This document shows positions 40,292 through 58,950 of a DNA stretch of 64,000 nt, piece by piece. The DNA is taken from the NCBI GenBank assembly GCA_963755715.1, contig CAVWLW010000043.1, positions 32,001 through 96,000 on the forward strand, read 5' to 3'. The stretch is from an uncultured delta proteobacterium (GTDB taxonomy: Bacteria > Desulfobacterota > Binatia > UBA9968). A model generated the notes under the pieces. That model ran no database searches. It had not been told where the DNA came from and saw only the letters and a list, made by a program, of their open reading frames with translations. The translations under genes and the position numbers were made by a program. Each line of letters opens with the position of its first letter. The first letter of the stretch is position 1.

Positions 40292-40296
40292 GTTCT

Positions 40297-40737
40297 TCAA
40301 AATCCCCACGGTCCTTGCGGCAGGGGCACCCGCAAGGTGGTGTAGAAAAGGAAGTACGAACCGAAAGCCAAGCTAGAGGCGAATACCAGCGACAACGCCC
40401 AGCCGCGTTTCTCCACGACTTTGAGGAGAAAGCCGAGCATGAGGAGCACGGTGAGACGATAGCCGAGACGCTCAATGGCAAAGACAGCGAAGACGCACGC
40501 GGCCAAAATCGCCAAGGCATGGCGCCACTCCGTCCAGCGAAGTGATGATAGCGAGGGTGCACGCCCAGCGGTGAATATGAGGAGAACTCCAAAGATCAGA
40601 AGTAGCGAGGCCAAAAGAACGGGAACGTATGCTGGTCCGGGTTGGCGAAAAGTTCCGAGCGGAAGATGACGGCTCTCCAAAATCACGAGCAGCGCAAATA
40701 GCACGAGGATGCTCGCAGAAATCCGGTCGCGTGTCAT
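40297..40737 (-). CDS. tctB: Tripartite tricarboxylate transporter small permease
   Basis: LPLGTFRQPGPAYVP, ERLGY, LRVPLPQG; four TM segments. Confidence 0.88.
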   Translation of the reverse strand: MTRDRISASILVLFALLVILESRHLPLGTFRQPGPAYVPVLLASLLLIFGVLLIFTAGRAPSLSSLRWTEWRHALAILAACVFAVFAIERLGYRLTVLLMLGFLLKVVEKRGWALSLVFASSLAFGSYFLFYTTLRVPLPQGPWGF

Positions 40738-40810
40738 CGTGAGGATAGATTGTGACAAGTTGGCGGCGAGGCCGCCAGAACATCTCTCGAATCTCTTAAC
40801 AACTCCGCAT

Positions 40811-41963
40811 TTATCGGCCCCACAACTCTTTGCTCGCAAGCCGCGCGCCTTCGGCCATGGCTTCGAATTTCGCCCAGCAGATTTGTGGGCTGCCGACCCT
40901 CGGGCCGAGGCCGCAATCGGTGCCGGCCATGACGTTTTCGCGCCCGACGATTTTGGCGTAGCGCACGAGGCGGTCGGCGATCGCTTGCGGATGTTCGACG
41001 ATGTCCGTGGCGTGGCCGACGACGCCGGGGACGAGCACTTTGCCTGCGGGCAACTTCACTTCTTCCCAAACGCGCCACTCGTGTTCGTGGCGCGGGATTG
41101 GCCGCTTCGATGGAAATCGTGTTGCGCTTTAACTTTAAGATCAGGTCGATGATATCGCGCAGCGGGATGTCATATTTGTGAGGGCCATGATAGCTGCCCC
41201 AACAGGTGTGAAAGCGCACCCGGTCCGGCGGGATGTCACGTAAGCCGTGATTGAGCGCGTCGACGCGCAGAGCGGCATACTTGCGATATTCCGGGACGCT
41301 CATTTTCGACATGAACTGCCAGCCGTCGGGCAGATCGGGGTCGTCGATTTGCAGCAAAAAGCCGGCGTCGACGATCGCTTTGTATTCCTCGTGCATAGCG
41401 TCGGTAATGGCGACCAAGTAGGCTTCATCATTCGGATAGTAATCGTTCTTCATCCAGTGTTCGATGGTGCCGGGTGCAATGGCGGGAAGAAAAGCTTCTT
41501 CGTAAGTCTGGCCTTGCAGGCTCGCTTTGAAATCCTCGATTTCCGCTTTCAGCGATTCGTGGCCGACATACTTGAGCGGCGCGTTGCAGAAAACTCGCCT
41601 CAGGTTGTCGCCACGATGATAAGTCCGACTATGAAAATAATCGCTGAACTCGGTTAGATCGCGCGCATATATCGTCGAAGGAAGATCTTCGGGCTTTACT
41701 TCTCGTTCGCTAAAGCCGCTCAGCCGTTCGCGCGCGTAGCGGGAGAAATTGGACTTACCCACCTCGCCGTCGTTTATAACATCGAGGCCGCAAGTGATTT
41801 GCTTCTTGACGATGTCGGCGACCGCGCCGCGTACCCGTTTACCAAAGGCGTCCTTGTCGACGGGCTTTCCCGCGATCTGCGCGTTATGCATTTCTTTCAA
41901 ATCTGGTGGTTGCGGCAGCGCGCCGGCATGGGTGGTTAGAATGCGATCGGTGCTGTATTTCAT
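40811..41963 (-). CDS. Cobalamin-independent methionine synthase II-like (MetE C-terminal) protein, frameshifted near 41095
   Basis: ILTTHAGALP, INDGE, LQIDDP, HTCWGSYHGPH, EAANP, AGTDCG. Confidence 0.87.
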
Positions 41964-42094: not shown

Positions 42095-43089
42095 TCACTT
42101 GAATGAGTCACTTACTTTCTGTGCGAAGCTAAAATCAAATACCCGTTCGGGCGGCGGCAGTTCCTTTGGCTTAACGCGCTGGGCCGCGACGGCAATCATC
42201 TCGCGCTGGACCTTTTCATCGACGGTTCCCGTTTGCAAATAATATTGGACTGCGGCCTCGTAGATACGCTCGGCAAAGCGGTCGCGATCCTTGCCGAGAT
42301 CGAGGTAGGGGCCTTTGATGAACTCGACGGCATATCTTCTTGTCACTACGAATCAGCCGGAGAGAGCGTTGGGTCACGCGAATCATTTTGGTCGACCAGC
42401 TCGGGTCGTTCGTTGATAATTGCTTTGGTCGTCGTCAGCCCGCCTTGCACGGCGCGGTAAAAGTCGGCGCCGGAGGCGAGCTTACGAAATCCCTCATCAA
42501 CGGCAAGAAAGTTCTGCGGAATCTGGAGCATGGTGGCATCAATGGTGCCGGCCTTCAAAGCTACATACATCACGTCGCTCGTGCCCAAAGGAAGAAAAGT
42601 AACTTGCTCCTGCGGAACCTTGTTGGCAAGAAAAATCTCGCGGGCGAGAGTTTCGGCCAGGGCGCCGAACGCCGTAATGCCGAGCTTTTTGCCGCGCATT
42701 TGTTGGAGGTTGGTGATGCTCGGCGCAGCGAGCAGATCGAAGGAGGGTTTGTCGCTCATAGCGAAGACGACCCGCACATCGATGCCGCTTAGCGCGGCGA
42801 CGATGGCCGTCCCGGTCGCCGTGCCGAAATCGATGCCGCCGGCCAGCATCGCCGGAATTGTTTGGGCCGCTTTCATAAAAATAAGTTCGGGCTCTAAACC
42901 CTCTTCTCGGAAATAGCCGCGGTCGCGGGCGATAATAAACGGCATGTCCAAAATACTCCGCGAAACATAGCCGATGCGCACAGGAGCCAATTTAGCGGAT
43001 TTTTCCGCAGACCAGAGGTTATCGTAGTGCGATGCGAGTGCGGCGAGGACGATTAAAAGCGATAGCAAAAAACGGGTCTTACATTTCAT
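42095..43089 (-). CDS. NMT1/SsuA-like substrate-binding protein, frameshifted near 42345-42390
   Basis: RIGYVSRS, GYFREEGLE, MRGKKLG, VFDFSF. Confidence 0.83.
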
Positions 43090-43160
43090 GTTTTCACCAT
43101 CCGATTGGCCGTTGATTGCGGCGAACACGAAACTCGAAACCCGAAACTAGAAATACTTTT

Positions 43161-43829
43161 TTACGCGTAGGCGTCATAGATGCCCTCGAACTTGGCGAGC
43201 TTGAAACGCACCATGTTTTTGGCGGCGGCGCGCACCAGTTCTTTCTCGCGATCCGAATTGGCGTTGCGCGCGATCGTCTCGGCGGCCATCGCCGTGTGTT
43301 CCTGGTCGACTTTGCCGTGCACGATGAAAAAAGTCCGGGCTCGGCTATCGAGGCCGTAATGCTTCTCCAGCGCTGCATCGAATTCGTCCGAATATCGCTG
43401 AACCATGGTTTCGTTGACTAGCGCACCGGCGCGGGTCTCCGCCGCTGTGCCGAGAAACATGCCGCGGATGATCGCTGCCGTGTGGGCGACGCACTCGAAG
43501 ATCATGATTTCCTTGTCGAAATCTTCGTCGGTCAAACCCATGGCTTGGCCGAATCGTTTCATCAACGCGGGATGGGACGATTCTTCGACGAAGAGTTCGA
43601 CGAACTGATTGTACGCAGGCGGGTTGCTGGCATTTTTCACCATACAAAATGCGAGCCCTTTGTTGATCGCGTGATTGGACAGATAGTGCTGCATGGCAAA
43701 GCCGGCGAGGCGCTTCTTGGAAAGCTTGCCCGCGCGCAGCTCGCTGAAATACCGGCTGTTCATTAGCTGGTCGACGCCCGGCAATATAATTTCACGCAAC
43801 ACGGACTCGACGAAAGCTTCGTTTCCCAT
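43161..43829 (-). CDS. Heme-oxygenase-like helical diiron protein (CADD/PqqC/TenA superfamily)
   Basis: GKLSKKRL..FAMQHY, EESSH, VNE, FFIVHGKVDQEH. Confidence 0.8.
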   Translation of the reverse strand: MGNEAFVESVLREIILPGVDQLMNSRYFSELRAGKLSKKRLAGFAMQHYLSNHAINKGLAFCMVKNASNPPAYNQFVELFVEESSHPALMKRFGQAMGLTDEDFDKEIMIFECVAHTAAIIRGMFLGTAAETRAGALVNETMVQRYSDEFDAALEKHYGLDSRARTFFIVHGKVDQEHTAMAAETIARNANSDREKELVRAAAKNMVRFKLAKFEGIYDAYA

Positions 43830-43971: not shown

Positions 43972-44067
43972 CGGTTGCGCCGCCAGTGGACCGCGGACGC
44001 GGCGGCAATCGACAGATTCAAAGGCGTAGGAATCTCTTGAAGCCAGACAATTTTGAGAGGATATAAA

Positions 44068-44910
44068 ATGGCCACCGCAACGCTCAACGGCGTGGACACG
44101 TACTATGAAGTACAGGGGCAGGGTGAACCGGTGCTACTCGTGCCGGCTTCTTGGTGGCCGTCGGATACGTGGAACGTCGGCGCGGTGCCTTTTCTGTCGC
44201 AACGATTTAAAACCATCGTCTTCGATTGCCGCGGCACCGGCCGAAGCGGCAAGCCGAAAGACGGCTACACGGTCGAGCAGTTCTCTCAAGATTGCATCGC
44301 TTTGTTGGCGCATCTCGGCGTGTCGCGCTGCCACGCCGTCGGGTTTGCTCTCGGCGGACAGGTCGTGCAAGCGATGGCCATCGAGCGCCCCGATCTGGTG
44401 GCAACATTGACTATCGCAGCCTCCGGCGCGGGGGCGAAAACGCTCGCTGGCGGACCGCGCAGCTTGTCGCCCGATACGGAGCGCGAAATCCGCGACATCG
44501 GCTTTGAGCGTTACATCCGCAACTACATCGAGAACGACACGATGGCGTTTACCCCAAAATTCTATCGCGAACATCCGGAAGTGGTGGCGGCCCTCGCCGA
44601 TGCCGTTTGGTCTGGGCAGAGCACGGTGGAGATGTTTCGCCGCCACGAAGACGCTCGCCTCACTTGGGACACTTTGGCGAAAGCCGCCGACGTGAAAGTG
44701 CCGGCGTTGATTCTCTGCGGCGCGGACGACGACGTGAGCCGGCGCGGCAGCACGCCCGTCGGAACGGCAAAGCGTCTCGCCGAGGCGACGCCTGGCTGCG
44801 AATTATTTTTGATTCCGAACACGAAACATATGACTTTTTGGGACGGCGCCGGCGGGTTGGTTGCACTGCAGGAGTTTCTGGTTCGCCACCCGATTGGAGC
44901 AACGCGGTGA
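44068..44910 (+). CDS. Alpha/beta-hydrolase fold protein, Ala at nucleophile elbow (paralog 1)
   Basis: YYEVQGQGEP, DCRGTGRS, GFALGG, LCGADDD, KHMTFWDG. Confidence 0.85.
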   Translation: MATATLNGVDTYYEVQGQGEPVLLVPASWWPSDTWNVGAVPFLSQRFKTIVFDCRGTGRSGKPKDGYTVEQFSQDCIALLAHLGVSRCHAVGFALGGQVVQAMAIERPDLVATLTIAASGAGAKTLAGGPRSLSPDTEREIRDIGFERYIRNYIENDTMAFTPKFYREHPEVVAALADAVWSGQSTVEMFRRHEDARLTWDTLAKAADVKVPALILCGADDDVSRRGSTPVGTAKRLAEATPGCELFLIPNTKHMTFWDGAGGLVALQEFLVRHPIGATR

Positions 44911-45920
44911 TTTTCTCGCCCGAACTCTTCAAGAGATTTCTGCGCAATGCATTCCTGGGTTTCATTGGTTGCTGCCTTTTTGTCGCTGTCCTGGCGACCG
45001 TCGTCGAAGCGCAAACCAAAAAAGTTCGCGTGGCGGTTCCCGGCTATACCATAGCGGTGCTGTCGTTTCTCGCCGCAAAGATGAACGGCTATTACGCTGG
45101 GGAAGGTTTGGACGTTGAGCTGATCGCGATGCGCGCACCCACGGCGAATTTGGCGCTCATCGGCGGCAACGTCGAGTTTTCCGCAGTTCCGCTGGCCGGG
45201 CTTACGACCGCGCTGCGCGGCGCACCGTTAAAATTGATTTTCTGCCAGTTCGACAAACCGCAGCATTCGCTTTACGCCAAGCCGGAGTTTCCCAACATCA
45301 AGGCGTTGCGGGGAAAGAAGGTCGCCGTTTCGGGTCTCGGCACCATCGACGATATTTTGCTGCGCGAAGCGCTCGGCGGGGGCGGTGTCGATCCCGCACG
45401 GGATGTCACGGTTCTCGCGATGGGTGCGGCGGACACCCGATTTAGCGCTCTTGTCAGCGGCGCCATCGATGCGTCGATGCTGATCGCGCCGACGTCTTTT
45501 TACGCCAAGGATCAGGGATTCCGAGAATTGGTCGCGTTCCAAGATTTGGGATTTGTTCTGCCCAGCGGCGGTATCGTTGCTCGTGACGAAACCTTAAAGA
45601 ACGATCCGATCACTGCGGAACGATTTGTCCGGGCAACAATTATGGGTTTCTTGTTCATGCGCGACAATCGTCCGGGAACGCTCAAGGTCATGTCGCGAAT
45701 GCTTCGAATTGATGAGTCGACAGCGGCCAAGCTTTATGACTCGTCTCGGCCGACTCTGACAAACGACGGCACGGTCACGGGAGAGTCGGAAAAAAAGATG
45801 ACCGGTATGGTCCTCAAAATTGCCGGCGTCAAAGAAGCTCCGCCGACGGATAAGCTCTATGACTTCTCGCTTGTGAAGAAAGCCCATGCGGCGTTACAAG
45901 CAAAAGGCTGGCGCCCATAA
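44907..45920 (+). CDS. NMT1/SsuA-like substrate-binding protein
   Basis: GTG overlaps the upstream TGA; GYYAGEGLDVE, ALRGKKVAVSGLG, LYDFSLV. Confidence 0.85.
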   Translation: MIFSPELFKRFLRNAFLGFIGCCLFVAVLATVVEAQTKKVRVAVPGYTIAVLSFLAAKMNGYYAGEGLDVELIAMRAPTANLALIGGNVEFSAVPLAGLTTALRGAPLKLIFCQFDKPQHSLYAKPEFPNIKALRGKKVAVSGLGTIDDILLREALGGGGVDPARDVTVLAMGAADTRFSALVSGAIDASMLIAPTSFYAKDQGFRELVAFQDLGFVLPSGGIVARDETLKNDPITAERFVRATIMGFLFMRDNRPGTLKVMSRMLRIDESTAAKLYDSSRPTLTNDGTVTGESEKKMTGMVLKIAGVKEAPPTDKLYDFSLVKKAHAALQAKGWRP

Positions 45921-45966
45921 CCAAGGCGCATTGTGAAATCGAGCAAAGAGACTAGCGAGGTTGAAC

Positions 45967-46800
45967 ATGCCTAGCGCGAAAATCGGCGACATCGACATCT
46001 ACTATGAAGAGCAAGGACAGGGCGAGCCGGTGCTGCTCGCCCCGCCGTCGTGGTGGCCGAGCGATACCTGGAAGGTCAGCGTCGTGCCGTTTTTGTCGAA
46101 GCATTACCGCACAATCATTTTTGATTGCCGCGGTACGGGCTACAGCAGCAAGCCCGATCATGGATACAACATCGAGCAGTTTGCCAAGGATTGTGCCGGG
46201 CTGCTGGGATACTTAAAAGTATCGCGCTGTCACGCGGCAGGTTTTGCGCTGGGCGGGCAAATCGCGCAGGCGCTGGCGATTCAGCGACCCGATCTCGTCG
46301 CTACGTTGACCATTGCAGCAGCGGGCGCGGGAACGAAAGCGACCGACGGCGGGCCGCGGGTGATCAGAAATACCGACGAGGAAGAGATTCGTGAGCACGG
46401 CTTCGAGCGCTTCATTCGCGGTCACGTCGAGAATACTCACATGGCGTTCAATGCCACCTTCTACGATGCCCATCCGGAAGTGGTCAAAGCGCTTTCGGAT
46501 GCGTTGTGGCGGCGTCAGACGAGTCCGGAGCAACATCGATATCACTACGAGGCCCGACGCACCTGGGATACATTAGGCAACGCGGCGAAAGTAAAAGTGC
46601 CGACGCTGATACTTTGCGGCGCGCAGGACGACGTCAATCGCGGCGGCAGTACGCCTGTCGGCACGGCGCGCAAACTCGGCGAATTGGTTCCCGGCAGCGA
46701 GCTTGCGCTTGTGCCTGACGTGAAACATATGACTTTTTGGGACGGCGACGGCGCGCTCATCGCGCTGCAGGATTTTTTGCAAAGGCATCGCATTCAATGA
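45967..46800 (+). CDS. Alpha/beta-hydrolase fold protein, Ala at nucleophile elbow (paralog 2)
   Basis: PPSWWPSDTW, DCRGTGYS, GFALGG, LCGAQDD, KHMTFWDG. Confidence 0.85.
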   Translation: MPSAKIGDIDIYYEEQGQGEPVLLAPPSWWPSDTWKVSVVPFLSKHYRTIIFDCRGTGYSSKPDHGYNIEQFAKDCAGLLGYLKVSRCHAAGFALGGQIAQALAIQRPDLVATLTIAAAGAGTKATDGGPRVIRNTDEEEIREHGFERFIRGHVENTHMAFNATFYDAHPEVVKALSDALWRRQTSPEQHRYHYEARRTWDTLGNAAKVKVPTLILCGAQDDVNRGGSTPVGTARKLGELVPGSELALVPDVKHMTFWDGDGALIALQDFLQRHRIQ

Positions 46801-46851
46801 CGTGAACCTTGAACGTTTGAACTCTTGAACCAGCGGAGGATGAATCGAGTC

Positions 46852-47912
46852 ATGAAACTGCGAAATTTCACAGCTGGCATCGTTATGATGCTCGTGAGCG
46901 GATTCGCCGGTGGCTGTGGGCTACGGCCAAGACAAGAGCCAAGGCCGGTAGTGACGGGATCACGCAACTTTATAACGCCGCCAAGAAGGAAGGCACGGTA
47001 GTCATCTGGGGACCGACGGACGCGATTATTTATCAACGCATGCAGGAGGTGCTGGATAAACAGTATCCGGGCATCAAGATCGAGCACTTCGAAAGCATCC
47101 CCGAACCGCTCGTGCAGCGCATCATCGCCGAAAGCCAAGCGGGGAAGCCGGCCGCGGTGGACGTCATTCAGTCCGGTTCGCTGCGCGCGTTGCGGCCGTT
47201 GATCGATCGCGACATGCTGGCGCCTTATCCGGGATGGGAGAAAGACTTTGGCCTCGACGCCGTATACGCCAACCAACGCTTTGTCGGCGCTTATAATCTT
47301 ACCTTGCCGATTTCTTACAACACGAAAATGGTGAGCGCCAAGGAAGCGCCGAAAAGCTGGGAAGATCTCGCCGATCCGAAGTGGAAGGGAAAGAAGATAA
47401 TTATCGAGGCCCGACTGGTGCCATTTGCCATGCTCGGAACCGAGTGGGGCAAACCGAAGGCAAGCGAATTGGTCAAGAAAATTCTCTCCCAGCAACCGCT
47501 CATCGTTCAGGGCGGCACCACCGTCGCCAATGCGCTTGCCGGCGGTCAAGTTTCGATTGCCGTCGGCACTTACGCTTACACCATCGAGCGCTTGAAGAAA
47601 CAGGGCGCGGCAGTGGACTGGATCGCCGTCTCACCTCTGCCCGTGCTGACTTCCGCAGAGGGAGTTCTCAAGACTGCAGCTCATCCAAATGCCGGGCGTT
47701 TCTTCGCCGGGTGGATGGGAACGCCCGAAGGGCAAAAGATCAGATACGCGACCCAGGGACAGGCCATGGAGGTGGGCAGAAACGCGATCGGCAACGTTGC
47801 CGAGAGAATCAAGAGCCAGCAGCCCGCGATCATATTGGAAACCGATAAGACCTTTGCGTCGATCTTGGAAATCCAACGCGAGTTGGGAAAATTGCTCGGC
47901 GCGCTGCGGTAA
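46852..47912 (+). CDS. Fe(III)/polyamine-type (AfuA-like) extracellular solute-binding protein, frameshift near 46920
   Basis: Signal peptide MKLRNF.., AAKKEGTVVIWG, YNTKMV..APKSWEDLADPKWKG, AHPNAGRFF. Confidence 0.8.
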
Positions 47913-47924
47913 GAATAATCGCGA

Positions 47925-48008
47925 TGTCATCCTGAGGCGCAGCCTGCAGGCCTCTACGCCGAGTTGGCCTCACGTTAATCGAGATCCGTCGCTTTGCTCA
48001 GGATGACA
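47925..48008. repeat. REP-like element, TGTCAT...ATGACA family
   Basis: TGTCATCCTGAG...CTCAGGATGACA, perfect 12-bp terminal inverted repeat. Confidence 0.8.
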
Positions 48009-48034
48009 CGATGTAAAAACGTGGAGCTGCTAAA

Positions 48035-49805
48035 TTGAACGTCGCGATGAAGCGCGGATTCAAGCGTTGGAATTCTGGCCAGGGCGCGCATCTACCGTTC
48101 GGACCCTTGACCTTCGGCTTGACGGTAATCGCCGTTTCTTATCTCGTTCTCGTTCCCTTGCTCATGCTGCTCTACGCCAGCATCAAAAGCACGGAGGACA
48201 AGCTGCCGTTCGAGTCCACGGCTACCACTCTCGGCAATTACACGGCCGTTTTCACCAGTCCGGCAACGCTGCCGATTTTTCTCAACACGCTGCTTTTTAC
48301 CGCGGGCTCGCTTGCGATCGGACTGCCGTTGGCGATTCTCCTGGCCTGGTTGGTCGAGCGGACCGCCATTCCGGCGCGCGCGTGGATCGGCAATTTGATT
48401 CTCGTGCCGATGACGGTGCCGTCGCTGCTGTCGGCGATCGCATGGGTCCAGCTGCTCGATCCGCGCAACGGTCTGGTCAACGTCGTCTTGCGCGGCCTGT
48501 TCGGATTGCAATCCGACACTGGGCCCTTCGACATCTACACGCTCTCGGGAATGTGCTTTGTGCAGGGCCTCAGGCTGGTGCCGTCGGCGTATTTGATGAT
48601 CGCGGCATCTTTTCGCGCCATGGACCCATCGTTGGAAGAACAAAGCGCGATGGCGGGGCAGAACGTCGCGCAGACCACACTGCGCGTGACTCTGCCGATC
48701 ATGCGGCCGGCGCTGCTCGCTGCGCTGATCTATTTCATCATCGTCGTGATCGAGTCTTTCGACATTCCGGGACTGCTCGGATTTACAGCCCGCATCCGCG
48801 TACTGAGCACGGCGATTTATTGGGCGACCCATTCGGAAGTCGGGCTGCCCGACTATGGGTTGGCGTCGGCCTTGGGAGCGATCATTTTAGTCGTCGCTCT
48901 GATGTTGATGTGGGGCTACCAGCGCTTGACCGCGCACCAAGAGCGCTTTGCCACCATCACCGGCAAGGGTTACCGGCCGCGCCAGGTGAATCTCGGCCCA
49001 TGGCGGATGACGGCAACGGCGTTCTGCGCGGTTTACATTATGATCGCCGTGCTATTGCCTTTTCTCATGCTGCTGTGGAGCAGCGTGCAACCGTTCTATG
49101 CAACACCGTCGGCGGAATCGCTGGCGCGGGTCACTTTTGAAGGTTACACCAAGATTTGGCGCGACGGCAGCGTCGTGCGCGCCCTGTGGAATACCCTCGC
49201 GCTTGCGCTGGTCACTTCAATGGCGACGATGCTGTTGGCCGTGCTCGTCAGCTGGTTCGTCGTGCGGCGCGGCAGACAAGCGGACGGCATGGCCAAGTAT
49301 CTCGCCACGGTTTCGTTTCTGCCGCAATGCGTGCCGAGCATCGTGATCGGTCTCGCGTTCATTTTCGTCTACGTGCGCTTCCCCATTCCGATTTACGGCA
49401 CCCTCTGGATCATCGCGCTGGCGATGACGACGCGCTATCTCGCGTATAGCTCGCGGGCGACGACGGCGGCGCTCATGCAGGTGCACGGCGAGCTCGAAGA
49501 AGCGTCGCAGATGGCCGGCGCGCCGTGGCTGCGAACGCTGCGGCGGATCACGATGCCGTTGCTGGCGCCGGCAATGATCAATGTGTTTCTTTGGGTCGCG
49601 GTCCATGCGATGCAAGAGTTGTCGATGGCCTTGATGCTCTACAATCCGAGCACCGTCGTCGTCTCGACGATGATCTGGAGCATGTGGCAGAACGGCCGAA
49701 CCGCCGACGCGGCGGTTTTGGGCGTTGTGTTAATCTTTCTGTCGGCGGTGCTGCTGGCCTGCTGGCCAGATCGTTTCGATAATGCGGCGCGGCGCGCATT
49801 CCTAG
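48035..49805 (+). CDS. Fe(III)-type (FbpB/AfuB-like) ABC permease
   Basis: Two EAA-type loops (MDPSLEEQS, HGELEEAS), FATITGKGYRP; removing one base near 49759 gives a natural end ..AGQIVSIMRRGAHS*. Confidence 0.85.
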
Positions 49806-49816
49806 CGGGATACTTC

Positions 49817-50914
49817 GTGATCAGCGTAAGAGATTTGGAGAAAACGTTCGCCGGTGCTAAGGGCGAAGTGCGCGCCCTGCGAGGCGTGTCGTTCGAGGTC
49901 GGCAAGGGAGAATTATTCACTTTGCTCGGTCCCAGCGGTTGCGGCAAGACGACGACGTTGCGCTGTATCGCCGGATTGGAGCAACCCTTGTTCGGTGAAA
50001 TCATTATCAACGACCGCAAAGTGTTCAGCGCCAACGATGGTACTTTCATACCGCCCGAGCAGCGTCACATCGGCATGGTTTTTCAATCCTACGCGATTTG
50101 GCCGCACATGACGGTGTTTCAAAACGTCGCCTATCCACTGGCCAACTCCGCTAAACGGAGTGAAATCAACGACCGGGTGGGCGGAATACTCGATCGCCTA
50201 AGCCTCGGCGCTTTGGCAGACCGGCTGGCACCGAATTTAAGCGGGGGACAGCAGCAGCGCGTCGCGTTGGCGCGGGCGCTCGTTGCGCAACCGCAGATTC
50301 TTTTGCTCGATGAACCGTTGAGTAACCTGGACGCGAAGTTGCGCGAACAGATGCGTTTCGAGCTCAAATCGCTGCAGGAGGCATTTGGTATTACCGCAGT
50401 TTATGTGACCCACGACCAAGAAGAGGCGCTGGCGCTGTCGGATCGCATCGGCTTGATGCACGAGGGCACACTGCTCGAAGTCGGCGCGCCGGCGGACCTT
50501 TATTTGCGGCCGGCGCACAAGATCACCGCGGATTTTCTCGGCACAGCCAATTTTGTCCCGGCACAGGCCGACGTCCGTGGCGGTATGACATCGGAGGAGC
50601 TGGTCGTGTGTTCGCCGATCGGTAATTTTGTCGCGCGGCGCAGTGCCGAATGGCAGGGAGGCGACGCCGTGCTGCTGTTTTTCCGTCCGGAAAACGTTGA
50701 CTTCAATAATGAATCGGATTTGTCGAGCAACGGTAAAAACATGGCGACGGGAAAGATAGAGCGGGTCACTTTTTTAGGTAATTCCGCTGACGTGGTGATT
50801 CGCTGCGGCACAATCGCATTGCGTGCACGCGTCCATCCGACGCGTGCGCCGGAGGCGGGGAAACTGGTTCGTTTTTCCGTAGCGCCGGAGTCGTGCATTA
50901 TTTTTCCGGCGTAG
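49817..50914 (+). CDS. ABC ATP-binding protein (FbpC/PotA-like, TOBE domain)
   Basis: [45 protein letters not shown]. Confidence 0.9.
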   Translation: MISVRDLEKTFAGAKGEVRALRGVSFEVGKGELFTLLGPSGCGKTTTLRCIAGLEQPLFGEIIINDRKVFSANDGTFIPPEQRHIGMVFQSYAIWPHMTVFQNVAYPLANSAKRSEINDRVGGILDRLSLGALADRLAPNLSGGQQQRVALARALVAQPQILLLDEPLSNLDAKLREQMRFELKSLQEAFGITAVYVTHDQEEALALSDRIGLMHEGTLLEVGAPADLYLRPAHKITADFLGTANFVPAQADVRGGMTSEELVVCSPIGNFVARRSAEWQGGDAVLLFFRPENVDFNNESDLSSNGKNMATGKIERVTFLGNSADVVIRCGTIALRARVHPTRAPEAGKLVRFSVAPESCIIFPA

Positions 50915-50965
50915 GAAATTCGCTTGCGCTGAGAATGCAATTGAAAAATCCGGTTGAGATCATGT

Positions 50966-50989
50966 GTAGGGGCGTGTGGCACACGCCCT
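50966..50989. repeat. GTAG-type REP hairpin
   Basis: GTAGGGGCGTGTGGCACACGCCCT. Confidence 0.7.
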
Positions 50990-51048
50990 CTTTTTGGCAC
51001 GGTCTTCCCCCGTCGAAGACTGTGCTGCAATTACGAAAGGGACCGAGA

Positions 51049-51132
51049 TGTCATCCTGAACGACAGTGAAGAGTCTCGACCGATCGATAAGTTACAAAAG
51101 GCGAGATCCTTCGGCTTCGCCTCAGGATGACA
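51049..51132. repeat. REP-like element, TGTCAT...ATGACA family
   Basis: TGTCATCCTGAACGACAGTGAAGA...AGATCCTTCGGCTTCGCCTCAGGATGACA. Confidence 0.8.
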
Positions 51133-51252
51133 TGGGACACAAGTCTCTCGAGCGGAGAGAGGTTACGGTCGGTGCTCGCGAGAAGCTTTCCGTAAAACCA
51201 GGCCAAGTTTGTGGGCTGAGATGGAGACAGTCGCGTCATTAGGAGCAGTGGC

Positions 51253-52204
51253 ATGACTTCAAGAAATAGTTCGAATGACAAGGATCAGCGGAACAGCATC
51301 GAGTGGCGGCTCTATACCAACATGCTGACGACGCGGCTCTTCGAAGAGGCGCTGGTTCGCTGGGAGCATGAGGGGAAACATTCGGCGCAGACTTTTCCGA
51401 GCAAGGGGCAGGAAGCGATTGCGGTGGGAACTTGCTTGGCGTTGGAAAAAGGCGACGATGTCATTCCGTCTTTTCGAACCCGCGGTGCGATGATCGCGAT
51501 GGGAGTGAGCGTTGTCGAGCAGCTGCGCGAGTTTTTTCACACGCCGTTCGCTGTGGGAGATGCGCGCGACGCGCCGCATCACGCGTCGTGGCCGGAGCGC
51601 GGCGTGATGCCGGGCTCGACGATGATCGGCGGGCACCTGGCGATGGCCGCGGGCATCGCGTTAGCCGATCAATGCAATCGGGCCGGCAATGTCAGCGTCG
51701 CTTTTTTCGGCGATGGCACGCTCGGTTCCGGAGATCTGTATGAGACCATGCATATCGCCGGAGCGTGGAATTTACCGTTGATACTGGTCTGCGAGAACAA
51801 TGGTTGGGAGATGGCGACGACCTGGTCGAAGGTGCGCAAGACGCGGTCGCTGATCCCTTACGCCGAGCCGTTCGGTTTCGCCGACGCGCAACGTCGACGG
51901 CAATGATGCTTTGGACGTGTATCATTCGGCGCGCTGGGCGCGGTCGACTGCATTAAGCGGCCAGCCGGTGTTTCTCGATTGCATCACCTTTCGTCTCGGA
52001 CTCTATAGCTCTCACTTCGGCGAGGTGCGACAGGGCATTGAACCCGATCTCGCTGAAGCCGAACGACGCGATCCGTTGAAGCGCATGGCAGAATGGTTGA
52101 TCGAACACTGTGCTGTGTCAGCTCAAGACCTTGAGAAGGTGCGCCAAGAAGAAGAACAACGGATCGAAAAAACATTCGAGCAAGTCGCGAGGGAAATGAA
52201 ATAG
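51253..52204 (+). CDS. ThDP-dependent dehydrogenase E1 alpha-like subunit, frameshifted near 51890
   Basis: RLFEE, GQEAIAVG, ThDP motif FFGDG...CENN, shifted frame VDGNDALDV..RDPL. Confidence 0.85.
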
Positions 52205-52225
52205 ACAAAAGATTGAATTGTCTTT

Positions 52226-52252
52226 GTAGGGGCAACCCTCCGTGGTTGCCCT
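52226..52252. repeat. GTAG-type REP hairpin
   Basis: GTAGGGGCAACCCTCCGTGGTTGCCCT. Confidence 0.72.
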
Positions 52253-52300
52253 TTCAGACGTCAAATATGCGAAAGGCGCAACGGAAGGGAAGAGCTACAG

Positions 52301-53251
52301 ATGTCGACATTGAATTACCGCGATGCGGTCGCCAAGGCACTGCAAGATTCCATGCGCGAGGAGCCGCGCTTGATTATCATCGGACAGAACATTGCCAGCC
52401 ACGCGCTCAAGCAATTGGCCGATACCTACGGCACGGAACGAGTGCGCGATTCGTCGATCAGCGAGAGCGCGATGGTCGGTATGGCCGTCGGCGCGGCGAT
52501 GAAAGGCATGAAAGTCGTGGTCATGATCGCCTACGCCGACATCGCGTCGGTGTGCCATATGGCGATCGTGCAGAGCGCGGCAAAACTTCATTATCTGACC
52601 AACGGTCGTCTAAAGTGTCCCGTGATCATCCGGTTGCCGATCGCGCGTTTTCGCGGCCATGGGCCGGAAGGGAACGAAGTCGGCGCGTCGTGGTTTTACA
52701 ATGTGCCGGATTTGAACATCGCCATGCCGGGCTCGACGAGTGAAGCTTACTGGATTTTTCGCGAGGCATTGCAACGGCCAACGCCGACGCTGTTTTTCGA
52801 AGATCGCTCGATTCACTTGCGATCGGGAGAAGTGAACGACACTAATCCCGGGAGCAAAGCGCGGGTCACTCGCTCCGGCGGCAAGTTAACCATCATCGCG
52901 GCGGGCCGGACCGCTGCGCTAGCTGAAGACGCTGCGGATGAATTGGCCAATCAAGGAATTCGCGACGCCGTCGAAATCGTGAGCCTGGGTTTCATCAAGC
53001 CGTTGGATAAGGAAACCGTGCTCAAGTCCTCAAGTAAGACGGGCAGAGTTTTGATCGTGCAGGACGAGCCCGCTGTGTCCGGCTACGCGCCCTACGTCCG
53101 GTGCGTGCTCGATGAATTACCCGCGACGAAACTTGCGCTGGCGCCGCGCATTCTCGCCGGCGCAGACCAGTATCTGCCGTACTGGGATGAGCGGCCGTTT
53201 TTGCCTTCTGTGGAAGGTGTGATGGCCGCGGCAAAGGATTTGATGCGATGA
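52301..53251 (+). CDS. ThDP-dependent dehydrogenase E1 beta-like subunit
   Basis: YGTERVRDSSISESAMVGMAVGAA, PTLFFE, IKPLDKETV..SKTGRVLIVQD. Confidence 0.87.
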   Translation: MSTLNYRDAVAKALQDSMREEPRLIIIGQNIASHALKQLADTYGTERVRDSSISESAMVGMAVGAAMKGMKVVVMIAYADIASVCHMAIVQSAAKLHYLTNGRLKCPVIIRLPIARFRGHGPEGNEVGASWFYNVPDLNIAMPGSTSEAYWIFREALQRPTPTLFFEDRSIHLRSGEVNDTNPGSKARVTRSGGKLTIIAAGRTAALAEDAADELANQGIRDAVEIVSLGFIKPLDKETVLKSSSKTGRVLIVQDEPAVSGYAPYVRCVLDELPATKLALAPRILAGADQYLPYWDERPFLPSVEGVMAAAKDLMR

Positions 53252-54270
53252 AAACATACAGCGAAATTCTACTGCTGACTGGCGCGCTAGCGGTGCTAGG
53301 TTTTGGACACGCGATCGCTCAAGTGGCGAATCCTGAACTGCTCGCCCAGGCGAAGAAGGAAGGGCGGGTGACTTGGTACACCACTGTTTCCATCCCTGAG
53401 AGCAAGCAATTCATGGACATGTTTGAGAAACAGTATCCGTTCATAAAAGTGGATCTGCTTCGTTCCGGCTCCGGGCCGCTGGTCAATCGCATTGTCAGCG
53501 AGTACGCGGCAAAGACCTACGCCGCGGACGTCCTGCACGGCATGTCCAGCCGGGGCGGATTCACCGTGCTCAAGCAAAGAAATATCATCGGCCGCTACGA
53601 CTCGCCCGAGCGCAAATATTATTCCGCCGACCTCAAGGACAAGGATGGATTCTGGTCGTCTACCTTTCAGAACACGTTTGTATTGGCTTATAACAAGCGC
53701 AACGTAAAACCTGACGATGTTCCGAAAACCTACGAGGATTTGCTGAAGCCCACGTGGAAGGGCAGGCAGATCATCAACGACACGGACAACTTCGAATGGT
53801 TCGACGGGCTGCTTAAGTTTTGGGGCCGCGATAAAGGCATGGCCTATTTCAAGCGGCTGGCGCAGCAAGACCAGATCTTTCAGCGCGGCGCGCGGGGGCG
53901 CATCCAACTCGTGGCGGCAGGCGAAGCGCCGCTGACGATCGGCTACGGTCCGCATGCGCAAAGTTTCGTCAACCAGGGCGCGCCCATCGAGTGGGTGCCG
54001 TTGGAGCCGGTCGTAGTGATCGTGAACAGCATCAGTATCGCGCAGCGCGCGCCGCATCCGGCGGCGGCAAAACTGTTTATCGACTTTCTGCTCTCCAAAA
54101 CGGCACAGACGAAATTACGCGAGATGAGCAGGATTCCATCGCGCAGCGATGTCGAATCGGACCCACCTCGTCTCATCAAGGGCTTCAAAAAAGTCGTTCA
54201 GGACATCGAAAACGAGAGCATGTCCGAGTCGATCAAGCTCTTTCAGCAAACGTTTAGTTTGGCTCCTTGA
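53248..54270 (+). CDS. Fe(III)/polyamine-type extracellular solute-binding protein
   Basis: Signal peptide, AKKEGRVTWYT, FEKQYPFIKV, PKTYEDLL, APHPAAAKLFIDF. Confidence 0.87.
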   Translation: MKTYSEILLLTGALAVLGFGHAIAQVANPELLAQAKKEGRVTWYTTVSIPESKQFMDMFEKQYPFIKVDLLRSGSGPLVNRIVSEYAAKTYAADVLHGMSSRGGFTVLKQRNIIGRYDSPERKYYSADLKDKDGFWSSTFQNTFVLAYNKRNVKPDDVPKTYEDLLKPTWKGRQIINDTDNFEWFDGLLKFWGRDKGMAYFKRLAQQDQIFQRGARGRIQLVAAGEAPLTIGYGPHAQSFVNQGAPIEWVPLEPVVVIVNSISIAQRAPHPAAAKLFIDFLLSKTAQTKLREMSRIPSRSDVESDPPRLIKGFKKVVQDIENESMSESIKLFQQTFSLAP

Positions 54271-54397
54271 TAGCAAATAAACTGGTTCAACACGTTCAAA
54301 TCGTTCGCAGGCGGAACGGTGCCTCGCAGTTGCGATCGAGCGGTATGGGGCATTGGCCAACTCAAGATAACGTTTTGAAGATTTATTGGGGAAGACA

Positions 54398-55237
54398 ATG
54401 GCGATTGCGAATGTAAATGGCGTCGAGATTTACTATGAAACACAAGGGAGCGGAGAGCCGGTTCTGCTGGTTCCGCCGAGCTGGTGGCCGTGCGCAACGT
54501 GGAACGTCGTTGTAGTTCCGATCCTTTCGCGGCGCTATCGCACGATCATCTATGACGGCCGCGGGACGGGACGAAGCGGTAAGCCCAAGGATGATTACAC
54601 CGTACGTCAGTTCGCCGCCGATGGCATCGAGCTTCTGAAGCAGCTCGGTATTACCCGATGTCACGTCGTTGGCTTCGCGATTGGCGGTCAGATCGTGCAG
54701 GCGATGGCGATCGATCGGCCCGATCTCATCGCGAGTCTGACGATCGCCGCCACCGGTCCGGGCTCGCGACGGCTCGATGGGACACCGCGGGAAGTCGGAC
54801 CGGAAGCTTTACAGGACATCGAGAAGATCGGCTTCGAGAAATACATCCGCACGCATATCGACAACGACCACATGGCGTACAATCCCGATTACTACCGCGA
54901 CCATCGCGAAGTGGCCGCAAGTTTGGCGCAGGCGCTGTGGTCGGGGCAAAGCACGGTCGAGCAGTATCATATCCATGAACAAGCGCGGCCTAGCTGGGAT
55001 ACTTTAGCCGAAGCGCCGAAGGTAAAAGTGCCGACGCTGGTTCTTTGCGGCGCGGACGATGGCGTCGAACGGCGCGGCAGCACGCCCGCGGCGACCGCGA
55101 AGATGCTGGCGCCGTTGATTCCGGGAGCGGAGTTAGCGCTGATTCCAAAGACCAGACATATGACGTTCTGGGATGGCGACGGCGCGCTGATCGCGTTACA
55201 AGGTTTCTTGGCGCGCCATCCGATCCGCACACATTGA
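54398..55237 (+). CDS. Alpha/beta-hydrolase fold protein, Ala at nucleophile elbow (paralog 3)
   Basis: PPSWWPCATW, DGRGTGRS, GFAIGG, LCGADD, RHMTFWDG. Confidence 0.85.
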   Translation: MAIANVNGVEIYYETQGSGEPVLLVPPSWWPCATWNVVVVPILSRRYRTIIYDGRGTGRSGKPKDDYTVRQFAADGIELLKQLGITRCHVVGFAIGGQIVQAMAIDRPDLIASLTIAATGPGSRRLDGTPREVGPEALQDIEKIGFEKYIRTHIDNDHMAYNPDYYRDHREVAASLAQALWSGQSTVEQYHIHEQARPSWDTLAEAPKVKVPTLVLCGADDGVERRGSTPAATAKMLAPLIPGAELALIPKTRHMTFWDGDGALIALQGFLARHPIRTH

Positions 55238-55659: not shown

Positions 55660-56415
55660 CTATGGATTGAGCTGCACAGTCTTCTCAAGGCGCTGGCCGC
55701 GGCGAACGATTGATAAGGCAACCTGCTTGCCTCCATGCTCACGGAGAAGTTCGTTAAACGCTTGAGCATTGGCGATTGCAACGCCGTCTACAGCGATTAC
55801 CACGTCGCCTATCTGCAAATCCGCATTAAAGGCCGGGCTCTCATCAACGACTAATCGGACCACTGCGCCCTGGTTGGTTTGGAGTTCTTGGCGTTCTGCG
55901 TCGTTGAGGTCACGGCTCAACGCACCTAGTCGGAACCGTTGCTTCACGAAGTAGACCGCGCCATAGTCTGACAGGGCAATTGTGGCCGGCACATAGGATG
56001 TGATGTCATCGAGAGCCCTGCTGGAGTCTTTGGGGGCCCTTGTTAGTATCGTAATCGGAATGTCATAAGTCACCGTCCCGGCGTACCTAGGATTCAGAAT
56101 TAGTACCAGGTCCGCACCTACGTCCTGTGCCTGACGAACAGCTGAATCCTCCGACTCAGGGTGACCGGTCTTGAACATTGAGTTGCCAATCATGATGTAG
56201 CCGCGCTTTGCGTAGGCATCAAGAATCATCTTGCTGTCGCCGCGCTCTGCGCGCTCCACGATGGGTGTAGCCGGTGGTGGCGCCACACGTATAGCCGCTA
56301 CAGCCTCCGGAGTCGCACCCTGCGCCTGCTTGTAGAACTCCTTGTATCCACTACATGCAGTGAGGAATAACGTAAAGAAAAGAGGAAGGAACGGACTCGA
56401 AAGTGCCTTGATCAC
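55660..56415 (-). CDS. PDZ-domain lipoprotein
   Basis: Lipobox LTAC, RBS AGGAGG, PDZ motif VVDESPAFNADLQIGDVVIAVDG. Confidence 0.82.
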   Translation of the reverse strand: MIKALSSPFLPLFFTLFLTACSGYKEFYKQAQGATPEAVAAIRVAPPPATPIVERAERGDSKMILDAYAKRGYIMIGNSMFKTGHPESEDSAVRQAQDVGADLVLILNPRYAGTVTYDIPITILTRAPKDSSRALDDITSYVPATIALSDYGAVYFVKQRFRLGALSRDLNDAERQELQTNQGAVVRLVVDESPAFNADLQIGDVVIAVDGVAIANAQAFNELLREHGGKQVALSIVRRGQRLEKTVQLNP

Positions 56416-56424
56416 AGGAGCCTC

Positions 56425-56551
56425 CTTGCTCTGCGGCTGGTGAGAGCCCCGAGATGTAACTAATCCGCGGGATGTTGGTGGGTCGCTGCGCTTCGGCTCG
56501 ATGAATTGAGACGAGAAGCAGAACCGGGAGCAGCCAAAACTTTCTATTCAT
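56425..56551 (-). pseudogene. N-terminal remnant of an ABC_sub_bind-type substrate-binding protein
   Basis: MNRKFWLLPVLLLVSIHRAEAQRPTNIPRISYISGLS is the typical start of that family, cut off at the PDZ gene RBS. Confidence 0.6.
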
Positions 56552-57108
56552 AGCCAGCCCTTCACCGCAATGGATATGCCACAAAGGCGGGCGATATTAA
56601 AATCAGTATTTTTTATCGCGAGAACAGTCGTTGAGCGTGGCGATTCGACAACAGGAGCTGTATCAGATTTGATTCGTGGGGTGAACGACAGCTCTCACCG
56701 ATCACAACGCCTTTCGCCCAAACAGCCACCGACCGGTAACAATCGTTAGATAGGCGAACGCCAAACCCAAGGCGATGCTCACCATAAAGGCGAACGGATT
56801 GACCCATCGCGCTACAACAACGAAGGCCAAAACATTGGCCACGAAAATGTAGGCGTAGAACTTGACGGCGTACGGCATGAAGCCGGGGGTTTATCGTTGA
56901 TGGGGTTGGATTGCAACCCGACGCCGGAGAGGGCGCCGGATTTATTGAGCCATCGCCTCAAGCATTAGGAACAATAGATAGCCGACCAATATTGTGGCGA
57001 TGATAACGAAAGGGTGAGATTCAACCCATCGGTGGCGGTCGGCGGCCGGTTGCTTTCTTTCCTCAACCTGCGCTAGAAGAACCTTCTGCGGTCACGGAGG
57101 TTGGCGAT

Positions 57109-57366
57109 ATGGCCGTTGATAAACGTAAGGCGCTTCAACCCGTCCTGGATAGCATCGAAAAGGGATGGCAGATCATAAAGCCGTCTCCCCTGAATCCGGA
57201 TGACCTCGACACCGAATGCATTTTTCAACACAGAGCAGCAGGACACGAACAAGTAAGAATTGTTATTGATAATAGCCTTTTCCGACTCAGCAACATATCC
57301 GAACTTCAAGACCTCGTTCGATCAGTAATCAAACCTGGCCCTAACATTTACTTAGCGAGACCGTAG
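57109..57366 (+). CDS. Hypothetical protein (85 aa)
   Basis: ATG with GGAGG RBS; no recognised motif. Confidence 0.5.
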   Translation: MAVDKRKALQPVLDSIEKGWQIIKPSPLNPDDLDTECIFQHRAAGHEQVRIVIDNSLFRLSNISELQDLVRSVIKPGPNIYLARP

Positions 57367-57616
57367 GCCCGGCTCTTTCAATTTCAACCACTGGCGACAA
57401 ATCCGGTTTTCCATCGTCGATCCATTTTTTGGCGAATGTAAGGCCTTCTATTTCCGCTTTTTGTCGTACACGAAATCTGCGCTTATCAGTTAACTTAATA
57501 AGCCTTCCTTTGCCGTCTTCACTCCAAATTACCTTAATGCGTGGTTCCCACTGACGCGTAGCAGGCACCGGCGCAGTTGAAACAATGATGTTGTGACCTT
57601 TATGGCTTTCGTTCAT
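57341..57616 (-). CDS. Small hypothetical protein, 'WID' (CV_2116-like) family
   Basis: HKGHNI..WEP..F..KAEIEGLTFAKKWID. Confidence 0.6.
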   Translation of the reverse strand: MNESHKGHNIIVSTAPVPATRQWEPRIKVIWSEDGKGRLIKLTDKRRFRVRQKAEIEGLTFAKKWIDDGKPDLSPVVEIERAGPTVSLSKC

Positions 57617-57687
57617 GAGGCTTCCTTCTTAGTCGAATTATTTCTCTGAAGAGAAATTGTCTTTGATTAGGTATTTGGGAGCAAGCT

Positions 57688-58180
57688 TTATCGCTGGATT
57701 GCAACCTGATACCGGCGAGGGCGCCGGATCTTTGGAGCGGTGAGCGGAAAGTAAAAGTGAAATTTAGTCACGGTTGAGCAGTTCGGCACAGCGCGATACG
57801 TCCCACCATCCCCAGGTGTCACGCGTGATCTCGATGCGTTTGACCGTCCCATCAGCAGCCGGCAAAAGCGAACCTCGCAAATAATCGGAATCGTAGTCGC
57901 TGGCGTGTAGCTTGAATTGCCCTGAATCTGCCCGTACTTATTTACCGTTCCAGAGAAATTCGACGAGCCAGGGAGCGTAAGCGAATTCATGCCCGAGTGC
58001 CAAGTGTAGAACTTGTCGCCGTTCGATAATGCGTACTCACTGACTGGTGGACCATAGCTGATAAAAAATTGATCGATGTGCCGGCCTGTATAACGTTCAC
58101 CCGAGCGATCCAGCCACGCCCTGCGTTGTGGTGCAGGCTGCTAAAAATAAAGCGCCGGCAAGCAATGCTCGATAGGGCAT
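57688..58180 (-). pseudogene. Frameshifted or truncated lipoprotein gene
   Basis: MPYRALLAGALFLAACTT lipobox, then another frame GRHIDQFFISYGPP..YTW..CEVRF. Confidence 0.5.
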
Positions 58181-58691
58181 GGAGCGGCGTTTAAGGGCTA
58201 GGCGGCTTTAGCGGATCGCAAATCTTTTTTGCTAGATCGAGGCCGCGTCTTGCATCCGTGAGGTCCTCTATGTTGCTTTTGATCTGGCTTTTCTTTTCCT
58301 CTAGTCGTCTGATCATTCATCCGTCAATTCCTGCGCCGTATAGTCCTTTAGGTTAGCCATCAGTGACCTCCAAGCCCGACGATTTAGCGCGATCATGTAC
58401 CGCACACCAGGAGAAAGCAGTCCTTCAGTTGCCGCCGATCGCACCGGCGCCCAATTTGATCACGCCCGCGGGTGCGTGTTCGCGTGCACGCTCTTCACTT
58501 GGCGAATCGCCACGCCCGTATAAATTTCCGTGGTGATGATCGAAGCGCGTGACCTGCTAGAGAAGGGGTAGACAGAGACCACCCTGAGTGGGTAGTATGA
58601 AAGTTGCTACCGAAACTTAATTGCGTTTTTCTTACTACACCTCGCCAGGCCAGTCAGGGCCGGAACGCCTTACAAATGGGGAGTTCTGCGC

Positions 58692-58916: not shown

Positions 58917-58950
58917 ACTACGACAGCGAAATTATTTGGCTTATCTCTTT

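Follow-up and report, generated by a model that had tools for sequence, protein, structure and literature searches.

Several members of the fold of alpha/beta-hydrolases (ABH) have been described that dispense with the catalytic nucleophile. According to passages of PMC10548524, the general base of the dioxygenase HOD is H251-D126, and the nucleophile can be dispensed with; in AqdC and further quinolone dioxygenases, the nucleophile elbow naturally has Ala, and the enzymes employ a His-Asp dyad; and HOD S101A stabilises O2 at the oxyanion hole. Excerpts of PMC3531081 give GHALG elbows for tomato methylketone synthase 1 (MKS1, Ala87) and for RutD, and the excerpts of both sources describe MKS1 as decarboxylating 3-keto acids with a His base and no acyl-enzyme. 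The fold also has non-catalytic members, often with the His conserved (PMC3531081, same excerpts). Here, we analyze a 64,000-nucleotide stretch of DNA from an uncultured delta proteobacterium (assembly GCA_963755715.1, contig CAVWLW010000043.1, positions 32,001 to 96,000; hereafter, the window), which encodes three paralogous proteins of this fold, ABH1, ABH2 and ABH3, with Ala where the nucleophile is expected. Their sequences mark them as a lineage-restricted ABH-fold subfamily that presumably descends from Ser-type esterase/lactonase-like ancestors. Ala-elbow enzymes are already known in RutD, AqdC and MKS1; the family is an independent variant and an uncharacterised subfamily.

All three genes lie on the forward strand. 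Counted from ATG, ABH1 occupies 44068..44910 (280 amino acids), ABH2 45967..46800 (277 amino acids) and ABH3 54398..55237 (279 amino acids). The enclosing open frames (44053..44910, 45961..46800 and 54386..55237) are all intact, and the lengths from ATG match those of more than 100 close homologs. In pairwise alignments, ABH2 is 64% and ABH3 65% identical to ABH1. Each protein scores 65-72 bits against Pfam Abhydrolase_1 (cut-off 25.8; E 7.8e-18 for ABH1) and is also well over the cut-off of Abhydrolase_6, and an AlphaFold (AF2) model of ABH1 shows the canonical fold at a mean predicted local distance difference test score of 95.4. At the strand-5 elbow, the usual place of a Ser, Cys or Asp nucleophile, all three have Ala94, within the strings HAVGFALGGQ (ABH1), HAAGFALGGQ (ABH2) and HVVGFAIGGQ (ABH3). 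The Ala codons are GCT at 44347-44349, GCG at 46246-46248 and GCG at 54677-54679, respectively. Residue 94 of the model sits between strand 88-93 and helix 95-106, and in a phmmer/HMMER alignment against the PDB, the GVSMGG of the esterase Est1 (6eb3) falls under the GFALGG of ABH2.

The remainder of the triad is in its usual place, with the acid (Asp221 in ABH1) after strand 7 and the His (His254) after strand 8, and these residues line up with DD and H in both Est1 and RutD. ABH1-3 also share the motifs P[AP]SWWP (26-31), R-x-G-S-T-P (225-230) and H-M-T-F-W-D-G (254-260). The frames, the codons and the Est1 alignment bear out the original prediction of three paralogs with a G-F-A-L/I-G-G elbow and GCT/GCG/GCG Ala codons, and no other Ser, Cys or Asp, which it had named as a ground for refutation, occupies the elbow. 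Its motif list holds for SWWP, RxGSTP and HMTFWDG in all three proteins and fails for 'CGAxDD', as ABH3 reads CGADDG; the acid motif common to the three is C-G-A-x-D, with D221 as the invariant Asp. As no signal peptide is seen at their N-termini, we infer that ABH1-3 are cytoplasmic.

The Ala elbow is a constant feature of the family. We pooled ABH1-3, close homologs of at least 270 amino acids and full-length frames from 78 public-genome loci, which were retrieved by the peptide patterns HMTFWDG and SWWP..TW and whose frames were chosen by related motifs, to obtain 197 non-identical sequences (the core family). Ala94 is present in 197/197, as is each of F93, G96, S28, W29, W30 and P31, while D221 and H254 are each found in 196/197. 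Among the close homologs listed (81-100% identical to ABH1), 120/120 have GFAxGG. With these two counts, the view that the Ala codons are not a sequencing slip is confirmed. S28, C217 and T256 are conserved at 98% or more in the core family, and residues conserved at 97% or more map to the canonical active-site loops and the cap.

Ratios of nonsynonymous to synonymous substitution rates (dN/dS) of 0.056-0.144 in 16 ortholog pairs, 15 of them with dS >1, point to strong purifying selection on the ABH proteins; the single unsaturated pair (dS 0.43) gives 0.127. We also found 32 positions that are conserved within ortholog groups and differ between them, with the ABH3 group represented by two members only, and 17 of these lie in residues 124-190, the cap. 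No fused forms were detected at E <= 1e-30 among the 491-2000-amino-acid proteins searched, which is weak evidence; the long proteins listed among the representatives consist of Ser-type hydrolases in tandem.

How the Ala arose can be read from more distant relatives. A search of 1.84 billion cluster representatives returned 53 proteins at E <= 1e-30. There, the family collapses to one full-length representative (62% identical) plus fragments, and the next full-length relatives are 33-39% identical. We aligned 107 representatives of 230-345 amino acids to survey their elbows. Apart from the family representative, non-Ser elbows were seen only in a small group at 35-40% identity (Ala in P0131, P0132, P0135, P0152 and P0153; Thr in P0134) and in one unrelated case, P0187; the remaining representatives have Ser, with P0148 and P0178 (truncated or garbled) not aligned at the elbow. 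P0187 branches alone, outside the clade described below, and its Ala elbow (GFALGG) is a second, independent case; its branch has an ordinary oxyanion loop and no RxGSTP insertion. A Ser in most close homologs would have spoken against the original prediction; none has Ser, and the nearest Ser-bearing relatives stand at about 37% identity or less.

For the tree, we chose 62 rows (the 3 window proteins, 7 close homologs, 14 locus frames and 38 representatives), removed the elbow columns and ran a quick IQ-TREE search with support from the Shimodaira-Hasegawa-like approximate likelihood ratio test (SH-aLRT) only. A clade of 50 rows (support 99) divides into a Ser group of 21 rows (90) and a non-Ser group of 29 rows (94; 28 Ala, 1 Thr), and the core family forms a group of 24 rows with support 100. 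One Ser-to-Ala switch, placed at the root of the non-Ser clade, accounts for these data. The description of ABH1-3 as a selected subfamily is strongly backed by this one switch, by Ala in 197/197 and by the dN/dS range.

The switch was accompanied by a remodelling of the pocket. Typical motifs of the Ser sister clade are SGTG[WY]P, GHSMGGR, G-[ST]-G-S-H after the acid loop and H-G-F-F-W-E. Counting only changes common to the core and its 35-39%-identical Ala relatives, we find that the non-Ser clade differs from the Ser sister by G29W, H93F/Y, S94A, loss of R98 (Q in the core), H200W/Y, G225R, H230P/Q and G255M. Read on the tree, four polar or charged side chains of the active-site loops became apolar in the same step as the Ser was lost, and an Arg shifted from position 98 to 225. 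The 35-39% relatives keep the His in 6/6 and D or E in 5/6. No candidate nucleophile was gained at the switch node in the alignment of the core, the 35-39% relatives and the Ser sister. The original prediction had also described an HG oxyanion loop replaced by P(P/A)SWWP. The loop is as described, and HG loss is not specific to the family: because Ser-bearing relatives already lack the HG motif (MGLGAP in Est1, SGTGWP in the sister clade), the family-specific change in this loop is G29 to W.

The host genome (G000) holds exactly three Ala copies and at least eight Ser-type sister paralogs elsewhere. These paralogs (GHSMGGR) lie at C32:75473, C5:48190, C64:16952 and C41:51630, with further ones at C13:83301, C2:85363, C2:86245 and C13:57775, and most of them sit a few hundred bases from an NMT1- or Fe3+-type binding-protein gene.

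To place the fold, we compared the AF2 model with known structures by Foldseek and VIA-align, listing the best 50 rows. VIA Z values of 28-34 to many alpha/beta-hydrolase members put ABH1 in the superfamily. The top structure is Est1 (6eb3/8v16; Z 33.6, root-mean-square deviation 2.0, 253 residues), followed by the PcaD enol-lactonase 2xua (Z 31.9), a Thermogutta esterase (Z 31.5), P. fluorescens aryl esterase and haloperoxidases (Z ~30) and RutD 3v48 (Z 29.4). Est1, a metagenomic esterase, is also the best sequence match (phmmer E 3e-31, identity 27-29%). It shares with the ABH proteins the fold, the length, an oxyanion loop without HG and the positions of acid and His, but has a Ser nucleophile in GVSMGG and lacks both W29/W30 and the five-residue RxGST insertion after the acid loop.

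Among NCBIfam models, that of the 3-oxoadipate enol-lactonase PcaD (TIGR02427) is the best for ABH1-3 or within 0.2 bits of the best, and the bifunctional PcaDC model is also among the best matches (93-111 bits with PcaD). The TIGR02427 scores of 92.7, 110.7 and 104.5 bits leave all three proteins outside that family (cut-off 255.85). PcaD is a Ser hydrolase, and Pfam scans of the neighbouring genes found no pca genes. Family members carry the names '3-oxoadipate enol-lactonase' or 'pimeloyl-ACP methyl ester carboxylesterase' in public pipelines, the pipeline cluster names for ten relatives are generic, and the ESM Atlas offers generic hydrolase clusters only, mostly Binatota. Since the nucleophile is missing and the scores fall far under the family cut-offs, both specific names are unjustified; the automatic PcaD name is wrong, given the sub-cut-off scores, the Ala elbow and the missing pca genes nearby.

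Of the known Ala-elbow proteins, E. coli RutD, a putative aminoacrylate hydrolase, can be aligned directly. Its VVGHALGA lies on GFALGG, with Asp and His kept, but it is 20% identical to the family and has neither SWWP nor RxGSTP. Scores against the RutD model TIGR03611 are 63.3, 54.0 and 67.3 bits (cut-off 238.5), and the setting of the rut operon is not reproduced, in that Pfam detects no luciferase-like monooxygenase, isochorismatase or RidA domain in the neighbours at 29.5-56.4 kb. As a Ser-bearing sister clade lies between them, the Ala of RutD and that of the family arose independently. MKS1 has Asn as its acid; it comes from plants and belongs to the SABP2/hydroxynitrile-lyase branch. 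By its published description, it resembles the family in fold, Ala elbow and His. The family works at most like RutD, the HOD/AqdC dioxygenases or MKS1 and probably belongs to none of them, its Ala having arisen independently.

We wondered how widely the family occurs. Most of the loci come from records titled as Candidatus Binatia or 'delta proteobacterium' metagenome-assembled genomes, a few are labelled otherwise, and by these titles the class is Binatia. Matches at E <= 1e-60 are found in 31/301 sampled genomes of the window's class, its own genome included. The positive genomes are confined to two families of one order (11/25 and 19/21), and at the same threshold none of the 254 genomes from the 18 remaining families of the class sample had a match. 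A phylum-wide sample of 301 genomes, ten of them of this class, gave the own genome only. Fourteen soil or rhizosphere DNA runs from seven studies contain at least 60% of the words sampled from the stretch. From four RNA libraries (four studies), short contigs map to ABH1 (its 3' part), the NMT1 gene and ABH2 (for example, 272 nt with one mismatch at 46307-46578) and are weak evidence of transcription, as they do not cover the elbow codons and may stem from DNA carry-over. A literature search on Binatia and binding proteins gave nothing useful.

The three genes sit in a cluster whose members we identified with Pfam and NCBIfam, both in the window and in L003, an intact relative, with extents from tblastn with L003 orthologs. 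Three genes lie on the reverse strand. The MetE-like gene (Pfam Meth_synt_2; 40814..41963; 383 amino acids in intact relatives) is split over two frames near 41095 (tblastn frames -3 and -1). The SsuA/NMT1-like substrate-binding-protein gene (42098..43128; Pfam NMT1, and NCBIfam SsuA_fam for the L003 ortholog) has an apparent frameshift near 42340-42388. The heme-oxygenase-like (HO-like), CADD-like gene (43161..43829; Haem_oxygenas_2 E 7.6e-17, with weaker TENA/PqqC matches) is divergent from ABH1; its closest NCBIfam is CADD TIGR04305, at 60 bits against a cut-off of 200.

The other members are on the forward strand. A second NMT1-like substrate-binding-protein gene (44949..45920; Pfam) stands between ABH1 and ABH2 and is missing in some relatives. 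After ABH2 come a gene for a Fe3+/PhnS2-type substrate-binding protein, SBPa (46914..47912; Pfam SBP_bac_8/1/6, tblastn extent), and, at 48035..50914, a two-domain ATP-binding cassette (ABC) permease (~48035-49756) with an ABC ATPase carrying TOBE (49817-50914; both by Pfam). Permease and ATPase form one 959-amino-acid frame in the window and two genes (592 + 364 amino acids) in relatives, and by NCBIfam they are PhnU2/PhnT2-like, under cut-off. Further downstream are a thiamine pyrophosphate-dependent E1 alpha gene (51253..52198; Pfam E1_dh; 329 amino acids in relatives) with an apparent frameshift at ~51884-51891, an E1 beta gene (52301..53251; Transket_pyr + Transketolase_C by Pfam, and NCBIfam) and a second Fe3+-type substrate-binding-protein gene, SBPb (53248..54270; SBP_bac_6 E 2.3e-20), directly upstream of ABH3. 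The cluster proteins all score far under the cut-offs of characterised families, and the cluster has no E2 or E3 gene. None of the frame breaks, in the MetE-like, first NMT1-like and E1 alpha genes, is at an obvious homopolymer.

Beside the cluster, on its upstream side, a complete tripartite tricarboxylate transporter set (TctC, TctA and TctB) occupies 37398-40839 on the reverse strand. Also on that strand are an FrsA-like esterase gene (30871-31956) and a gene for a 342-amino-acid protein (33596-34624) that matches Creatinase_N only, with no M24 catalytic domain detected. At 56400-60700, the G+C content is 0.49-0.51 vs ~0.57 and only short frames occur; the small frames 57341-57616 (-), 58692-58916 (+) and 58951-59406 (-) have a common 'W-I-D' segment. 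Over 55.2-64 kb and 40-64 kb, Rfam and tRNA scans gave no match.

The window's gene order (group A) recurs in at least ten relatives. A second locus type (group B), in complete chromosomes labelled Candidatus Binatia, has a single ABH copy (62-67% identical) directly upstream of the cognate ABC ATPase gene. Near it are either M24/creatinase-like and ornithine-cyclodeaminase-like (OCD) genes or a convergent unit of MetE-like, permease and binding-protein genes; in one group-B locus, L018, the MetE-like gene adjoins the ABH gene. We counted neighbours within 8 kb in 42 loci of at least 15 kb, some of which overlap on the same contig. A cognate permease or ATPase gene was present in 34/42 loci, a MetE-like gene in 17/42, E1 alpha in 14/42 and an HO-like gene in 11/42. 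As the permease/ATPase pair far exceeds every other neighbour in these counts, the stable partner of the ABH genes is the ABC importer.

Binding-protein genes are a different matter. Eleven of 21 relatives lie within 330 bp of a substrate-binding-protein gene, vs ~15-16% of random positions (binomial P 1.3e-4). We give this statistic little weight because the paralogs are not independent and binding-protein genes are very dense. The window's own genome (7.4 Mb) contains ~407 NMT1/SsuA-like and 168 Fe3+/PhnS-type loci, about one per 13 kb (tblastn, E <= 1e-8, at least 40% coverage, overlaps merged).

Two other readings of the neighbourhood were set aside. Matches to TenA-like, NMT1/THI5-like and ThiP-like proteins suggest thiamine salvage, a reading that proved superficial because the HO-like protein favours Haem_oxygenas_2/CADD over TenA, the ThiP match is weak and NMT1-like genes number ~407 in the window's own genome. 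The phylogenetic profile of the MetE-like gene was uninformative, as its family is multi-copy and occurs in 186/301 class genomes. With regard to the missing E2, AcoC combines a lipoyl domain with a hydrolase-fold domain, and a search for the AcoC-type E2 (NF011457) gave nothing over cut-off in the own genome or in 14 control genomes.

Taken together, the model we favor, and to which we give an even chance, is that the ABH proteins are enzymes that use nucleophile-free His-Asp general-base catalysis on an imported compound. The Ser nucleophile changed to Ala once, with concerted remodelling of the pocket and with His254-Asp221 retained. In the model, the proteins would no longer form an acyl-enzyme; instead, the His-Asp pair would act as a general base in a Trp-rich pocket on a metabolite, probably carboxylate-bearing, brought in by the cluster's ABC importer. 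With its Arg at a new position and its apolar lining, the pocket suggests a substrate whose hydrophobic scaffold bears a carboxylate. Candidate reactions are decarboxylation or tautomerisation (MKS1-like), enamine or imine hydrolysis by activated water (RutD-like), or addition of O2 to a deprotonated substrate (AqdC-like). As it is mainly the cap domain in which the three paralogs differ, they may act on related substrates or catalyse consecutive steps. As precedents for this model we count AqdC and HOD S101A (PMC10548524, in excerpt), MKS1 Ala87 (PMC3531081, in excerpt) and the RutD alignment.

Several observations weigh against general-base catalysis on an imported compound. In the excerpted text, the ESTHER authors warn against taking a conserved His as proof of activity. 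Outside the transporter the setting varies: E1 alpha and the HO-like gene accompany the ABH genes in only 14 and 11 of the 42 loci, and group B has M24 and OCD genes instead. The MetE-like family (Meth_synt_2, 383 amino acids) is multi-copy and widespread at E <= 1e-60, with matches in 186/301 class genomes, a tally that takes in the unpublished genomes G499, G474 and G504, and 6 matches in the own genome. With 575 substrate-binding-protein loci in the genome, adjacency alone tells little. The conservation counts at positions 28-30 and 254-258 are partly circular, those at 93, 94 and 221 being free of this. Finally, three neighbouring genes are frameshifted in the window, where relatives have intact, separate genes. 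These same frame breaks could speak for decaying pseudogenes or an assembly artefact, an idea to which we attach practically no probability, given that the ABH1-3 frames are intact, Ala is found in 197/197 sequences across many assemblies and studies, and dN/dS is ~0.1.

If the proteins have given up catalysis altogether, the hydrophobic pocket would only bind a ligand, the His-Asp pair would be structural, and the proteins would be cytoplasmic receptors, buffers or accessories of the ABC importer or of E1. We regard this as possible but rather unlikely. Loss of the nucleophile and the remodelled pocket fit a binder, as do the position of the group-B gene directly upstream of the ABC ATPase gene, the three co-conserved paralogs, which could form an assembly, and the existence of non-catalytic fold members, often with a conserved His (PMC3531081, in excerpt). 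On the other hand, both remaining triad residues persist in 196/197 sequences over deep divergence and in the 35-39% relatives (H 6/6; D/E 5/6), several natural Ala-elbow members of the fold are enzymes, and the search for fusions to a signalling or transporter domain found none, which again is weak evidence. A covalent hydrolase with a displaced nucleophile, such as Ser28 of the oxyanion loop, Cys217 or Thr256, would accommodate the conservation of these three residues at 98% or more in the core. We consider it very improbable: S28 was not newly gained to replace the nucleophile, since S/T28 is equally conserved in the Ser-bearing sister (T in 22/25), and C88, C217 and T256 are specific to the core, being absent or not conserved in the 35-39% Ala relatives.

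A narrower possibility is that ABH1-3 are cofactor-independent dioxygenases of the HOD/QDO/AqdC type, in which His-Asp would deprotonate an enol or hydroxy-heteroaromatic substrate and O2 would be held at the Ala 'hydrophobic elbow'. The analogy that the original prediction drew with nucleophile-free His-Asp dioxygenases is valid, AqdC having a natural Ala elbow and HOD S101A stabilising O2 (PMC10548524, in excerpt); the fold, the His-Asp general base of these enzymes and their dispensable nucleophile are the common ground. The Trp-rich, apolar turn of the pocket and the predicted O2-using di-iron-type protein beside the ABH genes in group-A clusters would also suit such chemistry. However, no specific relationship to HOD is seen (BLASTP 26.2 bits, E 5e-4 in a single comparison, over 93 residues; 18% alignment identity). 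HOD has its acid, D126, after strand 6 and lacks the strand-7 acid segment, whereas the family reads TIAASGAG without an acid after strand 6 and has its conserved acid, D221, at the canonical strand-7 place. The HOD elbow is H-S-H (H100, H102), and the family has F93 and L/I95 instead. The proposed comparison of a structure model with HOD and AqdC yielded a confident model, but its nearest neighbours are Est1, PcaD, esterases and perhydrolases; the best 50 listed by Foldseek and VIA are esterases, lactonases and perhydrolases, and HOD is not among them. No aromatic or heterocycle catabolic genes were seen beside the ABH genes. The family thus appears to be no relative of HOD or AqdC beyond the common fold, and we judge a dioxygenase of this type to be improbable.

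A more far-reaching version of general-base catalysis is that the ABH proteins perform a new class of reaction together with the cluster's E1 alpha/beta, which is lipoyl-less, and its CADD-like di-iron protein, catabolising an imported soil compound in Binatia. In one form, E2 would be replaced by a transferase or lyase for acyl or 'active aldehyde' groups that works through His-Asp without a nucleophile; in the other, the ABH proteins would be a new cofactor-independent decarboxylase or oxygenase. We hold this to be unlikely; if true, a soil compound taken up by a multi-receptor ABC system would be broken down through a catabolic pathway not known so far.

Whatever their reaction, the ABH proteins offer a natural example of the re-purposing of a hydrolase fold, in which one Ser-to-Ala switch and about eight coordinated pocket changes can be compared with Ser-bearing sister paralogs in the same genome. 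If they are catalytic, they would constitute a fourth independent Ala-elbow lineage beside RutD, the AqdC-type dioxygenases and MKS1, and would point to a pathway, so far uncharacterised, of import and conversion in soil bacteria that are abundant and uncultured.

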